DNA of 64,000 nucleotides. It comes from a bacterium (GTDB lineage: Bacteria; Cyanobacteriota; Vampirovibrionia; Gastranaerophilales; JBAXKC01). Made by a program: the position numbers. The stretch lies in assembly GCA_037137535.1 (NCBI GenBank), contig JBAXKC010000007.1, positions 1-64,000 on the forward strand, written 5' to 3'. Every line of letters starts with the position of its first letter. Positions within the stretch are counted from its first letter, which is position 1. Positions 18,001 to 21,000 of this stretch are shown here, one piece after another.

Positions 18001-21000
18001 TCTATTATATAACAATAAAAAAAGCGACAGATTATCTCTGCCGCCATTTTTCTAAGTATAATAATTATTCTTCAATAACTAAAATATTACCTTTGATTGA
18101 ACCGTTTGATTGTGCTAAATAATCTTCAACAACCGCTCTTGAATTATCACCTGTGTAAACAACACCTGTCTGTTTATCAACGTTCTTTTCAAAGTTCTTT
18201 TTAACTTCATTAGGGACATGGTATTTTCCGTTTACAACATCTCTAGAACCTTGAATGATAGCGTTTGATGTTCCAAAATCATCCCAATTACCATGAGCAA
18301 CATGAGCAACCACTTTTAATCCGTCTTTCAATGCGCCCGGGATAGCATCTTTACCGAAATCATATTCCCCTTCTTCAGGATGATGCTCAGCAAGCGACTT
18401 TAAGAATTTAGGACTTGCAATATAAATAGCAGTATTCGCAAGGTATTCGCCTTTGTGCTTACCTTCTTTAATTAATCCCATTTCAGCGGCTTCTAAATTT
18501 TTTGGTTTTTCGATGAATTTTTGAATATTTTTATCATCATCCATTCCGATAATACCAAAACCACTTACATGATCAGGAGGAACAGGAATACCGACAATCA
18601 TAAGATCTGCTTCTTTAGCATTAAATTCATCAAGAGCTTCTGTTATCTCAAAGTCAGAGAAAGCATCTGCAGAGCAAATGATTGCAGGTTTATCAGCAAG
18701 TTTTGGATCTTTTTCAATAGCTTGATAAACTGCACCTGCATTTCCCGCTTTTCCTACTTCTTTACTGAATTCAGGCTTTGTATCAGGAGCTATAACTCCA
18801 CCTTTTACTCCCATAGCAAGACTGTTATCAATCAAGTGTGAACCATCTGCCATTGCAATTGAAGGTTTGCACATTTCATTAAGTGTAATATCATTTGTTC
18901 TTGTACCAAAACCACCAGCGGTTGAAAGGAAGTTGAACTTATCAAATTTTGCATGATTTTTTTGATATTGTTTTTCAAATGCGTTGAAAATACCTTTATC
19001 AAATGAACCTTCTACATCATTTTTCAATTCTTCTGCTTTATAGGAAGTTAAAACGACTAATTTCCCTGCAAAAGAGACTTGTTTTTTAGCTGAAGGCATA
19101 TTTAACTGAACATCATCAGTTTTAACTTCTGATCCTGCTTTACAAATTAAAACAATATTTTTCCCTGGTTTATTAGGATTAGGAATTTCAATTCTGATTG
19201 CTTTTCCTGAAGCACCTGTCATTGCTTTAACAGTTACTTTATTATTATCGGTTTTCTTTTTAGCAGTTGCTACAACATTACCGTCAATATCAGTAACATA
19301 GACTTTACGCTCTCTTGTTCTTGTATCTGTATCCCATTCAACTGTTAAAGGAGCATAAATTTTATCAGGTTTTTTCCCTGCCTTAGGCTCAGTCCAATCT
19401 TTTTCTTTTTTAGGCTCATATGAACGAACTTTAGATTGTCCAAGTTGAGTGTCGCCTTCAAATATATCAACAACTCTTGAATTATCACCATCACCTTTAA
19501 ATGATATTGTTGATAAAGCCATTGATTTCAAAGCATGAGCTCCTTGTGAACTTACTAATTCTTTTTGATTTACAGTTGCTTTATTTTCTACTTGTTCATG
19601 TTTCTTTTCTGCTTTAGCTGTCTTTTGAAAAAATGCTGAAGAAACATTTGAAATTTCAAATGCCATAATTATATTTACCTTTCTAACTCTCGAATTTGAT
19701 ACTTACTCTCTATGGTAGTATTAAAGTCAAGACAAAAAAGAACATGACACTCATAAACAAAAATGTAACAAAATCTTAATATTTTTTTTTATAATTTAAT
19801 ATAACTTTTAATTTTATTTTTTTCTGAAATAAATTCTGTTTGACTAACCGTCAAAGAATCTTTATTTTTTTCTGCTTTTTCAATATGGAACAAAGCATCT
19901 TCATATTCATTAGTTAGACTGAATACTCTAGCCATAGCAAAATGCAAATCACCGTTATCAGGACTTTGCATTATTGCAGATTCAATTATATCAAGTGCTT
20001 TGTCATACTCTTTCAGATAAACAAGGATTGAATAATAAGTTTTATAGGCAGCTATATCTTTAGGATTTAACTCAACAGTCTTATTTAAACAGGTCAAGGA
20101 TTCTTTTACATCACCCTTTTCATAATAAAGGCACGCTAAATTATAATAAGCCCAACTGTAGTCGGGATTTATGGCTAAAGCTTTTTGATAACCGTCAATT
20201 GCCTTATCCAGCTCTTTAAGTTTTTTATATTCAAAAGCAAGGTTAAAATAAGCAAAAGCATCCTTTGGATTATATTTTATAGTTTGCTCTAAATGATAAA
20301 TAGCCAAATCGATCATATTCTGTTTTGAATAGATACAACCTAAACAAAAATGAGTATTTGAATCCTCCAAATCAAGAGATAATGTTATTTTATATTCATT
20401 AATTGCTTCTTTTAAATTTTGCTCTTGTTCATATATAAAAGCAAGATTATAGTGATAGTCAGGCTCATCGGGAGCAAGACTTATTGCCTTTTGATAAGCC
20501 GTTTTTGCATTATTAAATAATTTCTGCTTTTCATAAACTATCCCCACATTAAAATGCAAATCTGCATTTTGAGGAAAAATTTTCAACAAAAGCTTATACT
20601 GTTCAAGCGCTTCAATTAAAAGATTTTCCTCTAAAAGAGCATCAGCATACTCTCTCCTTAGTTTATAATCGGAAGGAGTTTGACTAATTAATATTTTAAA
20701 AGTTTCTAACGTTTTCTTCTCTTTAAGATTCATATATTAATAATACATATAAAGGTGCTTTTGTACCATAAAAAGTTTAGAACCTCTTAGTTTATACTTT
20801 TAATTTTTAATAATTTATTGAATAACGCTCTTATCTAAATCTTCAATAAAAGAAATAGCAATTTGAGACAGATTTCTTTTTGTTTCAAGTGGAGAGTGTC
20901 TTAATAACTCAACAAAGATTCTAAGAATCTCATCTTCATCATACCATCTACGTCTTCTGTATTCTTGCGTTGCAAGCTTAAAAACGTCATCAGGCAACAT

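Follow-up and report, generated by a model that had tools for sequence, protein, structure and literature searches.

A short phenylalanine-centred motif in disordered N-terminal leaders of unrelated melainabacterial proteins, a candidate export tag

The g0877 locus

The window analysed here is a 64,000-nucleotide stretch of contig JBAXKC010000007.1 from an uncultured freshwater melainabacterium, a member of a non-photosynthetic sister lineage of the cyanobacteria. On its minus strand, at 18065–19666, lies g0877, an ORF of 533 amino acids whose disordered leader is followed by a beta-rich domain and then, after a disordered linker, by a GlgC-like nucleotidyltransferase domain. The leader (residues 1–53; 19508–19666) is polar and predicted to be disordered, with pLDDT values of 24–29 over residues 1–60. 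It contains a degenerate first box, VSSQG (residues 38–42; 19541–19555), which aligns with ISFQG, ISFSG and VDFKG of relatives, and it ends at the box ISFKG (residues 54–58; 19493–19507), which falls within the disordered segment 1–66 and was correctly placed in this gene by the initial annotation. The beta-rich middle domain (residues 107–190; 19097–19348) has DSSP strands over residues 107–189 at pLDDT 60–70. It is followed by a linker (residues 191–210, pLDDT <50) with an internal copy of the box, VSFAG (residues 197–201; 19064–19078), just before the catalytic domain. F56 of the N-terminal box and F199 of the internal copy are invariant in 8/8 aligned members of the g0877 family, at 26–75% identity.

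The nucleotidyltransferase domain (residues 211–533; 18068–19036) was recognised by Pfam, an AF2 model and Foldseek. PF00483 spans residues 303–477 (E 3.1e-26), and the GGxGTR loop of that family is present as GGFGTR, which is conserved in the g0877 family. The AF2 model has a pLDDT of 66.9, and its best Foldseek matches are ADP-glucose pyrophosphorylases (E 4e-13). Judged by domain and predicted fold, g0877 is a GlgC-like sugar-1-phosphate nucleotidyltransferase, the substrate being a prediction. RNA-library contigs span 18096–19695 at 100% identity and include the region of the leader.

Upstream of g0877, and given as context only, is a gene assigned by Pfam to a TPR protein of 314 amino acids (19789–20733, minus strand), one of several dozen proteins with TPR repeats that were matched genome-wide. 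Further context is provided by the export-gate genes of a flagellar set termed set B (21484–25525, minus strand), which Pfam identifies as a FliN-like gene (24293–25525), FliO, FliP, FliQ, a pilus-N-domain protein and FliR. It had been claimed that g0877 closes this fliN-fliR operon, but two genes lie between g0877 and fliR, with gaps of 318, 81 and 122 nt, and the g0877 orthologues in two relatives adjoin rplS-, GTPase- and RNase HII-like genes rather than fli genes.

Three other proteins in the window carry the box or a variant of it. A 656-aa protein at 159–2129 has VSFNG at residues 35–39 (2013–2027, minus strand), found by position-specific scoring matrix (PSSM) and by sequence, and has no family in a Pfam scan. 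Variant boxes, found by sequence, are LNFKG at residues 38–42 (28271–28285, plus strand) of a 491-aa protein at 28160–29635 with no significant Pfam family, and INFTG at residues 35–39 (61147–61161, plus strand) of a 408-aa protein at 61045–62271 with no Pfam family.

An N-terminal motif common to unrelated proteins

As a short linear motif, the box Phi-[S/A]-F-[K/S/T/G]-[G/A] sits within a disordered leader at the N-terminus, and it is widespread in this genome. Counts were made in a crude call of 2517 ORFs (minimum length 80 aa, starts at the first ATG, overlaps removed greedily) from the 2.95 Mb genome. The strict pattern [VIL][SA]F[KTSG][GA] occurs 73 times in the first 85 aa (213,880 residues) and 32 times in the later 621,702 residues, which corresponds to 3.41 versus 0.51 per 10,000 residues, a 6.6-fold enrichment. 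Among these 73, Lys precedes the final Gly/Ala in 27, Ser in 22, Gly in 12 and Thr in 12. In an unbiased k-mer test, VSF was the top N-terminally enriched 3-mer (82 versus 88, p 1.6e-10), and SFKG was second among the enriched 4-mers (23 versus 11). A 12-column PSSM at a threshold of at least 13 bits matched 66 proteins N-terminally and 13 sites later, whereas 30 rounds of shuffling the N-termini gave 2.5 on average and at most 7. Nine of the 66 were removed by eye as false, namely a NuoK-like protein, a signal-peptide protein, TilS, a radical SAM protein, a GNAT protein, two AspRS fragments, FlgE and a set-B rod protein, and the remaining 57 form the curated set. Single linkage of the sequences after the box (BLASTP E<1e-5) places these 57 in 48 groups, and 41 of 61 scanned proteins are without a Pfam family.

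It could be argued that such a motif arises artificially from composition, from gene calling or from a signal at the nucleotide level, since the genome has 31% G+C with abundant Asn and Lys, and gene starts are defined by first-ATG calls. The controls already largely refute this reading, which we regard as extremely improbable. When matches were filtered for acid-poor, non-hydrophobic leaders at three motif widths, 42 (strict), 64 (loose) and 116 (wide) of the 2517 proteins remained, whereas shuffles that keep the composition of each N-terminus gave means of 1.9, 6.4 and 24.8, and mirror-image patterns gave 1, 4 and 26. The Ser at box position 2 is written in both codon families (26 TCN and 11 AGY in 56 genes read), as the initial annotation had noted, so selection acts on the protein. 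The invariant Phe across the g0877 orthologues also speaks against an artefact, as do two other AT-rich genomes of the class, in which the motif was found in 0/163 (G047, 34% G+C) and 0/179 (G096, 33% G+C) ORFs. It is confirmed that the motif is real, protein-level, N-terminal and common to unrelated proteins without signal peptides.

From the leader-filter counts against the shuffles, the true members number roughly 60–90, and the tag thus marks about 2–4% of the proteins in this genome. The earlier statement that about 100 unrelated proteins share the motif is borne out in substance. Its figure of 108 members at 14 bits is compatible with our estimate, but neither that exact count nor its 84 groups, its held-out recovery of 30–33 of 54 and its 69/106 proteins without Pfam family were reproduced. 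The genes are also clustered, with 10 adjacent pairs compared to 1.26 expected and a maximum of 6 in 500 draws.

Acidic residues are almost lacking in the leaders, in which Asn, Gln, Thr and Lys abound; Asn makes up 25–33% of leader positions 4–7 compared to 8–9%. Empirical rules for type III signals of Pseudomonas syringae ask for three things: twelve leading residues without acid, Pro or an aliphatic residue at position 3 or 4, and a first stretch of 50 residues that is rich in polar ones. Compared with other proteins without an N-terminal hydrophobic stretch, the tagged proteins more often have no Asp/Glu in the first 12 residues (45/57 versus 560/1912) and an aliphatic residue or Pro at position 3 or 4 (35/57, 61%, versus 49%), and their S+T+N+Q fraction is higher (0.35 versus 0.23). 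All three properties occur together in 25/57 (44%) versus 114/1912 (6%). The likeness to the P. syringae rules is statistical only, and the polar residues are mainly Asn, Gln and Thr rather than Ser. The box lies between 6 and 78 residues from the N-terminus, and in 25/57 it starts at residue 24 or earlier. In predicted models of g0877 and of a papain-fold protease discussed below, the box is in disorder, as expected of a docking motif.

In agreement with the initial annotation, no signal peptide precedes the motif: none of the 57 has a hydrophobic stretch ahead of the box or anywhere in its first 45 residues, compared to 475/2517 (19%) proteome-wide. A Sec or lipoprotein signal peptide was rejected on this absence of a hydrophobic core in the first ~45 residues. 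A Tat signal was likewise rejected, as the box has no Arg pair and 37/57 proteins have no hydrophobic segment anywhere; TatC is encoded in the genome, and a twin-arginine regex gave 3 matches, all false-looking. A membrane-like segment follows the box in 20/57, and in a relative (G015) two tag members have a signal-peptide- or lipobox-like segment 45–65 residues in. Both observations fit a cytoplasmic N-tail as well as a secretion signal.

The tag is order-wide at low copy and expanded 3–5-fold in this genome. The order includes gut-associated lineages, judged by the names of the records that carry client families. In the samples taken from other groups, the tag was not found in f12, f13 and f16, nor in 200 kb each of f14 and f18; in f15, one genome (G035) had none and another (G041) one plausible match in 68 ORFs.

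Clients, flagellar export sets and possible routes

The tagged proteins, or clients, are varied. They include a UshA-type 5'-nucleotidase (C3:78611) with the box LPFKG, an M14 carboxypeptidase, a 1508-aa GH13 protein, a glycine-zipper protein of outer-membrane-lipoprotein type, adenosine deaminase, DHH phosphoesterases, glucan enzymes, a pentapeptide-repeat protein and many orphan proteins. Glucan metabolism is represented by three GlgC-like proteins and the GH13 protein in this genome, a starch-synthase-like 921-aa protein in a relative (G002), and a client gene that adjoins a GH77 gene. Other clients need cytoplasmic substrates, such as the GlgC-like nucleotidyltransferases, a PlsC-type acyltransferase, an AAA ATPase and a LOG-family protein. 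In a fused tandem 5'-nucleotidase (P0045), an internal INFTG lies in the linker just before the second catalytic module.

The genome encodes two full FlhA, two FlhB, two FliPQR and two FliI, and hence two flagellar export sets; the second FliPQR set is at C3:62058-63895. Set B comprises a basal body of FliF, FliE, four rod proteins, FliH, FliI, FlhA, FlhB, FliOPQR and a FliN-like protein, for which profile searches with PF00460 and PF06429 found no second hook or junction protein. Genome profile searches found neither VirB4 nor VipB, and only flagellar-type sets, with no injectisome.

The initial annotation saw in the motif a resemblance to the N-terminal box of hook and rod proteins, and this holds for the last four to five residues only. 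In both the tag and the PF00460 rod/hook box, small-Phe-Lys comes after an Asn-rich run. Axial boxes in this genome have the form N-x-N-T-x-G-F/Y-K, and FlgE (NMNTVGFKG, box VGFKG) and the set-B rod protein (NYNTVAFKA, box VAFKA) match the tag PSSM at 17.6 and 18.3 bits. The tag may accordingly be read as a mimic of this box, by which the proteins would be taken as early, rod/hook-type substrates by a set-B gate that serves a basal body lacking, in the searches above, a second hook. The wider likeness fails, however. Of 54 tag N-termini, each of 90 aa, none matches PF00460 or PF00669 even at E<=5, against 47.1 bits for the FlgE control. PF06429 or a D1 domain, and with it a C-terminal rod domain, is present in 0/57 curated members; in the scan of 61 proteins it was confined to FlgE and the set-B rod protein. 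A flagellin N-terminus HMM scored forward above reversed in 29/57 only, no better than reversed sequences.

In PMC8983047, early rod and hook substrates are described as having N-terminal small hydrophobic residues and a gate-recognition motif that docks on FlhB, and as needing a spacing of 19–24 residues. The tag leaders resemble such substrates in a disordered unchaperoned N-terminus, small hydrophobics at 2–5, the lack of a cleavable Sec peptide and a second short hydrophobic, Phe-containing element downstream. Unlike those substrates, the tag has the box Phi-S/A-F-x-G rather than FxxxPhi at a variable spacing, and its clients are enzymes and membrane proteins rather than axial subunits. 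FxxxPhi is not enriched within 25 residues after the box (10/57 versus 507/1993 control windows), and the 25/57 early boxes lie closer than the spacing rule allows. Furthermore, genomes of other orders with two full FlhA copies (G034, G045, G096) have no tag in 200 kb each, which means that the tag does not track a second flagellar set, and the g0877-fliR synteny is not conserved. Mimicry of the hook/rod box is therefore very unlikely.

Effectors of class IB type III chaperones share a conserved chaperone-binding sequence, as stated in PMC3280449. The tag is similar in being a short N-terminal sequence common to unrelated proteins and usable for genome search, but differs in its sequence and in having no known chaperone, in a genome with only flagellar-type sets.

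The best single reading, to which we give a probability of about 40%, is that leader and box form a Sec-independent export leader, possibly for a flagellar-type gate. The earlier proposal of an export tag survives in this form, without the profile likeness to flagellar substrates. The leader and box would be recognised in the cytoplasm and would route the varied tagged proteins out of it, most likely by way of a flagellar-type III export gate, one of the two in the genome, on which the box would dock, and the leader may be removed at the box. This reading is favoured because the leaders resemble type III secretion signals in the three properties, because Sec-type N-termini are absent from the curated set while common in the proteome, and because, of the Sec-independent routes sought, the genome has two flagellar export sets, together with four stand-alone FlhA C-domain paralogues as against one in relatives. 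The RNA-library contigs and the clustering of motif genes were also counted in its favour. In addition, the UshA-type 5'-nucleotidase, the M14 carboxypeptidase, the GH13 protein, the glycine-zipper protein and the papain-fold protease belong to types that are usually extracytoplasmic, and on these the leader sits at the usual place of a signal peptide. In the case of 5'-nucleotidase C3:78611, a signal peptide is absent from 13 order-wide homologues and from a paralogue in this genome, and all of these have polar leaders of 10–45 aa.

Counted against export are the membrane-like segments after the box, the conserved internal box copies (F199 of g0877 and INFTG of the tandem 5'-nucleotidase), the enzymes with cytoplasmic substrates, the failure of the tag to track flagellar sets across the class, and the fact that a signal peptide was never seen in class homologues of the adenosine deaminase, 5'-nucleotidase and protease.

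In another reading, the box is a cytoplasmic docking motif that would tether soluble enzymes and membrane-protein N-tails to a hub or scaffold, and nothing is exported. Stand-alone FlhA C-domain paralogues are candidate hubs, as are a TPR protein and a scaffold at storage granules or at the pole. Membrane segments occur only after the box, which itself is disordered, many clients are cytoplasmic-type enzymes, and glucan-metabolism enzymes recur. Stand-alone FlhA C-domain proteins number 4 in this genome versus 1 in each same-order genome tested (19/19 f3 genomes plus G005, G007, G015, G016 and G025), loosely parallel to the expansion of the tag, and one of them (C27:25204) is 39% identical over its first 163 residues to the set-B FliG-slot protein. 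Yet the partner is hypothetical, an f11 genome (G031) has FlhA C-domain-only proteins but 0 tags in 163 ORFs, and client families with typically extracytoplasmic relatives fit poorly. We consider docking of this kind rather improbable.

A predicted papain-fold protease and comparison with known systems

One client may itself act on the box. The protease C20:31392 (487 aa) represents an order-wide family with >500 members at 40–47% identity, and has as invariant residues Cys200 at the start of helix 200–212, a GHE with His409 on strand 402–418, and Asp430, Asp432 and Asp433. VIA-align of its model gave top matches that all belong to clan CA. Among them are SpeB (Z 9.9, 180 residues, rmsd 4.2), staphopain C (Z 9.6), calpain (Z 9.4), a C39-like peptidase (Z 9.1) and the ComA peptidase domain (Z 8.8), values only modestly above the stated background of Z 7–8. 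The best Foldseek match is a cysteine protease (E 2.5e-3), and no sequence match to any Pfam or PDB peptidase, C70 included, was found. The model thus points to a clan CA (papain-fold) cysteine peptidase family, whose activity and box specificity are predictions. The protein has a prodomain-like helical region, and its structural neighbours SpeB, staphopain and interpain are secreted zymogens. It carries the box VAFKG (residues 43–47) in its own predicted-disordered leader; the residue aligned to the box Phe is Phe in 14 and Tyr in 4 of 20 family members, so that, together with g0877, the earlier observation that orthologues keep the motif stands.

It is therefore conceivable that the box is a proteolytic site at which a protease of this type cuts leaders and linkers at or beside the invariant Phe. 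The cuts would take off a propeptide or set modules free, and the enzyme would also trim its own N-terminus. Such cleavage could be the leader-removal step of export or stand alone. We hold this to be unlikely, while treating it as the main rival to export. The pattern is protease-site-like, with small residues flanking an invariant Phe and a hydrophobic residue two places ahead of it, and boxes occur at module boundaries as well as in disordered leaders. Close orthologues of the protease are present in 19/19 same-order f3 genomes and 2/2 f11 genomes, while the family was not found in f12 (0/18), f13 (0/19), f15 (0/8), f16 (0/11) and f17 (0/2); the samples from f12, f13 and f16 also lack the tag. 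Against this, such co-occurrence in one clade is expected from shared descent alone, and weaker homologues occur in f14 (12/12) and f18 (7/7), where the tag was not seen. In the gut clade of the protease family the box is degenerate (PYNP or PFNP), peptidase matches are confined to structure and modest in Z, and the protease could be a mere client of the tag. A precedent is AvrRpt2 (C70), a papain-fold protease which, according to bioRxiv 10.1101/583054, recognises PxFGxW and cuts itself and several substrates. It shares with the present case a Phe-Gly-centred motif of ~5–7 residues in its own N-terminus and in unrelated substrates, but the register differs (P-x-F-G-x-W versus Phi-S/A-F-x-G), and cleavage here is a prediction.

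Other known systems resemble the tag in part. Double-glycine leaders have 15–30 residues with an acidic helical pattern and are cut by the C39 domains of Sec-independent ABC exporters. Like them, the tag leader ends in Gly/Ala, although here by definition of the box, and has a candidate papain-fold leader peptidase and candidate Sec-independent export; weak C39 matches (34.6 and 29.7 bits) were seen in two ABC proteins of the genome. Unlike them, the tag has Gly before the final Gly/Ala in only 12/73 boxes, is free of acid over 6–78 residues and is attached to large enzyme cargoes. Extended N-region motifs of signal peptides are also known, namely YSIRK-G/S, ESPR of autotransporters and KxYKxGKxW of accessory-Sec substrates. 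These too are short motifs in a long polar N-terminal extension, and some tagged relatives have a signal-peptide-like segment after the box, but 37/57 proteins lack any hydrophobic segment and SecA is present in a single copy. Encapsulin or microcompartment targeting, which would call for a shell protein gene, was rejected, as neither PF04454 nor PF00936 was hit at E<=0.1, with the genome rated 100% complete. Processing of the L27 type by Prp, which takes off an N-terminal extension ending in Phe, was rejected because L27 starts MASKKG, with no such extension. No Pfam or NCBIfam model matched the tag, and full-text literature searches found no description of it; it looks like an undescribed targeting or processing signal.

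Sorting and leader-processing signals are a key to reading where the proteins of a proteome go, and the known ones (Sec, Tat, lipobox, sortase and exosortase tags, and the T9SS C-terminal domain) each opened a field. The present case offers as handles a client list, a five-residue box with one invariant Phe, and two candidate machineries, the flagellar-type gates and the papain-fold protease. In the most far-reaching picture, which we think improbable, the second, class-wide basal-body set would be a general secretion system for the 60–90 tagged proteins, in which the four additional FlhA C-domain proteins would offer further docking platforms and the papain-fold protease would trim the leaders. 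The tagged proteins would then make up a secretome, or else a set of effectors directed at other cells. If proteolysis at the box is the true explanation, the organism would have a new leader-peptidase system; if export is, the tag would be a rare sequence-defined type III-like signal.

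Extent and anatomy of the N-terminal tag

A box of five residues, [VIL][SA]F[KTSG][GA], set in a polar, acid-poor N-terminal leader, recurs across the Gastranaerophilales genome studied here (G000; 81 contigs, 2.95 Mb, 31% G+C, the window being C7:1-64000, with 2517 ORFs in a crude gene call). We refer to this arrangement as the tag, and to the proteins that carry it as members or clients. The regular expression of the initial annotation proved to be N-terminal as claimed, with 73 matches in the first 85 residues versus 32 later, a 6.6-fold enrichment per residue. In a k-mer test that presupposes no motif, VSF was the tripeptide most N-terminally enriched and SFKG ranked second among tetrapeptides. 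At a threshold of at least 13 bits, a PSSM matched 66 proteins N-terminally and 13 later sites, while shuffled N-termini gave a mean of 2.5. With a filter for acid-poor, non-hydrophobic leaders, strict, loose and wide patterns found 42, 64 and 116 of the 2517 proteins, compared to 1.9, 6.4 and 24.8 in shuffles and 1, 4 and 26 for mirror-image patterns. A fair estimate is that about 60–90 members of the genome are real, which is in line with the 108 tagged proteins first reported. The genome-wide observation is real, and it is scarcely credible that the tag is an artefact.

Nine PSSM matches were judged false by eye and dropped (a NuoK-like protein, a signal-peptide protein, TilS, a radical SAM protein, a GNAT protein, two AspRS fragments, FlgE and a rod protein). 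The 57 remaining members form 48 unrelated groups, which bears out the earlier claim that unrelated proteins share the motif. Their box serine is encoded by TCN 26 times and by AGY 11 times. Motif genes also lie next to each other, in 10 adjacent pairs versus 1.26 expected.

Information is limited to the five box residues, and the flanks are merely Asn/Gln-rich. The leader preceding the box is 6–78 residues long and nearly acid-free (0.30 Asp plus Glu in residues 2–15 versus 1.37), Asn makes up 25–33% of positions 4–7 versus 8–9% elsewhere, and the polar character continues through the 20 residues after the box. No hydrophobic segment precedes the box in any of the 57 members; a membrane-like segment follows it in 20, and the other 37 lack hydrophobic segments altogether. 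A second box copy is not a general feature (7 of 57 members versus 218 of 2460 other proteins, no enrichment). An HMM of six flagellin N-termini gave members a median score of −1.2 versus −1.6 for other proteins (p 0.0018); since reversed sequences score equally (forward better in 29 of 57), a flagellin-like extreme N-terminus was rejected as a composition effect, and only 2 of the top 40 proteins are members. The leaders are matched by no Pfam or NCBIfam model, and full-text searches on Melainabacteria or Gastranaerophilales secretion or flagella, and on SFKG, turned up no description of the tag, bioRxiv supplements lying outside those searches.

Clients of the tag and possible routes

A Pfam family is absent in 41 of the 61 PSSM matches scanned. 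Plausible members with one are a pentapeptide-repeat protein, a LOG-family protein, a PlsC-type acyltransferase, a 1508-aa GH13 protein, an adenosine deaminase, two DHH phosphoesterases, an M14 carboxypeptidase, an AAA ATPase and two GlgC-like transferases, of which a third paralogue was also found. Variant boxes occur on a UshA-type 5′-nucleotidase (LPFKG) and on a glycine-zipper protein of outer-membrane-lipoprotein type. The nearest taxon-named database relatives of the 5′-nucleotidase are from melainabacteria or cyanobacteria, the others being labelled “bacterium” or without a name. In P0045, a 996-aa protein from another assembly, two 5′-nucleotidase modules are fused in tandem, and INFTG lies in the linker directly preceding the second catalytic module.

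We tentatively favor, with a probability of roughly 40%, that the tag is a Sec-independent export leader, for which a flagellar route would be the likeliest. The leader composition is type III-like, and Sec cores are wholly absent. In addition, the tag occupies the usual place of a signal peptide on the 5′-nucleotidase, the M14 peptidase, the glycine-zipper protein, the giant GH13 protein and a predicted protease with a papain fold and zymogen-like build. Against export, some clients need cytoplasmic substrates, and membrane-anchored clients exist. A purely cytoplasmic docking role for the box was also considered, and is unlikely. Whether homologues outside the tag-bearing clade have a signal peptide in place of the tag is uninformative as a test, since those of the adenosine deaminase, the 5′-nucleotidase and the protease in the class lack one as well.

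Other systems were also checked. The genome has a single SecA and therefore no accessory Sec system, and its L27 is without an extension, so that Prp-type processing is absent. Although TatC is present (C25:19237-19833, 81 bits), the box does not form a twin-arginine signal, and a twin-arginine regular expression gave only three matches in the 2517 proteins, all false-looking. Encapsulin, microcompartment shells, VirB4 and VipB were not found in the genome.

Box copies in the GlgC-like protein and a predicted papain-fold protease

The coordinates of the initial annotation, window positions 18065-19666 (−), are those of a 533-aa ORF encoding g0877, a GlgC-like protein. A sugar-phosphate nucleotidyltransferase makes up its C-terminal two thirds (PF00483, residues 303–477, E 3.1e-26), and among solved structures ADP-glucose pyrophosphorylases come closest in fold (Foldseek E 4e-13, TM about 0.5 by target). 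Modelling by AlphaFold2 on eight members of the family (pLDDT 66.9) predicts disorder at residues 1–66 and 191–210, a beta-rich domain at 107–190 and the catalytic domain at 211–533. No fold match was obtained for the beta-rich domain in a Foldseek list that was filled by the catalytic domain.

The eight aligned family members are g0877 itself, its counterpart in a different assembly (75% identity), a paralogue and five same-order proteins at 26–30% identity, and the alignment shows three box copies. The first has decayed to VSSQG in g0877, while relatives have ISFQG, ISFSG or VDFKG. The second is ISFKG at residues 54–58, and the third is VSFAG at residues 197–201, in the linker preceding the catalytic domain; F56 and F199 are each invariant in all eight members. 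This conservation of internal copies counts against an export leader.

Positions 18096-19695, the g0877 leader among them, are covered at 100% identity by contigs (two RNA libraries, freshwater metagenome), for which DNA carry-over is possible. In the RNA-library contigs, the TPR gene upstream of g0877 is not covered and there is no bridge from g0877 to its neighbors. It had been proposed that g0877 closes the fliN-fliR operon. The gene does follow fliR on its strand, but two genes intervene, with gaps of 318, 81 and 122 nt, and the link to fliR is not conserved in two relatives, where the orthologues sit in a different neighborhood.

The family of the tagged protease (C20:31392, 487 aa) comprises over 500 proteins at 40–47% identity, whose only names are “hypothetical protein” in Gastranaerophilales-type records. 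Cys200, a GHE motif containing His409, Asp430, Asp432 and Asp433 are invariant. In the model (pLDDT 76.6), residues 1–55, including the box, are disordered, residues 61–164 are helical and prodomain-like, a helix begins at Cys200 and His409 lies on a strand. Alignment of this model with 48,161 chains by VIA-align gave matches that are almost all to clan CA cysteine peptidases, with Z scores of 9.9 for SpeB, 9.6 for staphopain C, 9.4 for calpain, 9.1 for a C39-like peptidase and 8.8 for the ComA peptidase domain; Foldseek agrees weakly (best E 2.5e-3). At the sequence level, the G000 member has no match in Pfam and the family profile none in the PDB (best E 1.1). In G015, another genome of the class, three successive genes (G015:C3:40001-60000, positions 8205-13659 of that segment, L118) are tagged and encode the protease orthologue, an 832-aa protein and a 395-aa protein; the latter two have a signal-peptide-like or lipobox-like (LTAC) segment 45–65 residues after the tag.

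The box may instead be a processing site for this protease, a possibility to which we give rather low odds. Such a site would account for the residue pattern of the box and for its location in disordered leaders and at module boundaries, including the INFTG of the fused 5′-nucleotidase. The protease itself is tagged, and AvrRpt2 offers a precedent (bioRxiv 10.1101/583054). The argument, however, draws on the co-occurrence of tag and protease in one clade, and the protease may be merely another client.

Flagellar gene sets and the distribution of the tag

The genome contains two flagellar-type export gene sets. Set A comprises FliPQR, FlhB and FlhA on C3, FliI, FliH and FliF homologues on C36, and rod, hook and junction genes on C15, C1 and C36. 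Set B amounts to a nearly complete second complement of basal-body and export genes. It encodes a FliN-like protein, FliO, FliP, FliQ, a pilus-N-domain protein and FliR in the window (21484-25525), FlhB on C21, and, on C13 (60-11342), FliI, FlhA, FliH, a 313-aa protein in the FliG slot, FliF, FliE, a lytic transglycosylase (SLT) and four rod proteins. PF00460 and PF06429 detect only one hook and one junction protein, and found neither gene for set B.

The 141-aa pilus-N-domain protein (22268-22693, −) has, besides a signal peptide, a pilus-formation N-terminal domain (PF13629, E 4.6e-5); its gene lies between fliQ and fliR and overlaps the fliR start, which is unusual for a fliPQR operon. Set-B FliQ (22704-23198, −) has 164 residues from a GTG start, or 145 from the first ATG, with Bac_export_3 at residues 8–75 only and a polar C-terminal extension of about 90 residues, while set-A FliQ has 89 residues. 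The gene at 20815-21165 (−) and five paralogues (C1:62764, C4:82520, C6:74573, C8:14215 and C27:31355) form a family of small proteins of about 105–125 aa with no Pfam match; the window member has both RWYE and RWYD, the latter being the tetrapeptide most N-terminally enriched in the genome (13 versus 1). A same-strand gene run at 29640-35615 (−) resembles a Tad/Flp-type pilus operon, in a scan limited to the secretin (PF00263, 161.6 bits, 34392-34880), and a 508-aa ORF at 31587-33113 may be its ATPase. Finally, a 775-aa protein (43271-45598, +) combines a long coiled coil with an FHA domain that also matches the YscD type III inner-membrane ring cytoplasmic domain (PF16697, E 1.7e-6), and its N-terminus, MNTNNSVNFFS, is similar to tag leaders.

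Four stand-alone FlhA proteins of 456–595 aa (C2:107687-109057, C34:182-1675, C27:25204-26991 and C60:3193-4599) join a variable N-terminal part to the cytoplasmic C-domain alone (PF00771 positions about 270–655). The first 163 residues of the C27 protein are 39% identical to the protein in the set-B FliG slot. One such protein was found per same-order genome tested (19 of 19 in family f3, 5 of 5 others) and none in families f13, f14 and f18. A complex prediction for the C34 protein (residues 120–497) with g0877 residues 1–75 scored 0.00, which is no verdict and evidence neither way.

Specific mimicry of the flagellar axial box is very unlikely. The axial boxes of this genome read N-x-N-T-x-G-F/Y-K, and the PSSM also picks up FlgE and one set-B rod protein. 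The likeness to the hook/rod box claimed initially nevertheless extends to no more than 4–5 residues, with none of 54 tag N-termini matching the Pfam rod box even at E≤5. No gate-recognition motif is enriched after the box. Early flagellar subunits require a certain spacing from the N-terminus (PMC8983047), and many boxes here lie closer to the N-terminus than that.

Among other genomes of the class, samples of 80–200 kb from 13 were searched, absence applying to the sampled part; two 34–40 kb pieces picked for their g0877 orthologue were left out. A degenerate DNA pattern was too noisy for tracking the tag (38 matches versus 13–28 for permuted patterns). Convincing members number about one or two per 130–180 ORFs in same-order genomes: 2 in 183 ORFs of G002, 1 in 130 of G007, 1 in 142 of G019, a doubtful one in 179 of G001, and in G015 one by the loose pattern, one by the strict pattern and one by eye, all clustered. 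The same leader filter gives 4.6 per 180 ORFs in G000, the sole member of its family among the genomes compared. In samples from other orders, G041 has one plausible tag in 68 ORFs, G103 and G034 have false-looking matches only, and G045, G031, G035, G047 and G096 have none. These counts make the tag a low-copy feature of the whole order that is expanded 3–5-fold in G000. Orthologues keep the box, as stated initially: the tag is present on the proteases of both G015 and G000, which share 38% identity, and in f11 the protease and one adenosine deaminase have SFTGG, KFTGL or LIAFRG.

It is common for genomes of the class to have two full FlhA copies (families f11, f13, f14, f18, f19 and f20). 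The tag is absent in the samples of three two-FlhA genomes outside the order and f11, and thus does not track set B. It parallels the FlhA C-domain-only paralogues within the order, but this fails for G031. A phyletic link to any export system is missing, which weighs against the export reading. Export and processing are compatible, as an export leader trimmed at the box would fit both. We class the tag among protein sorting or leader-processing signals, and the machineries proposed for it are candidates.
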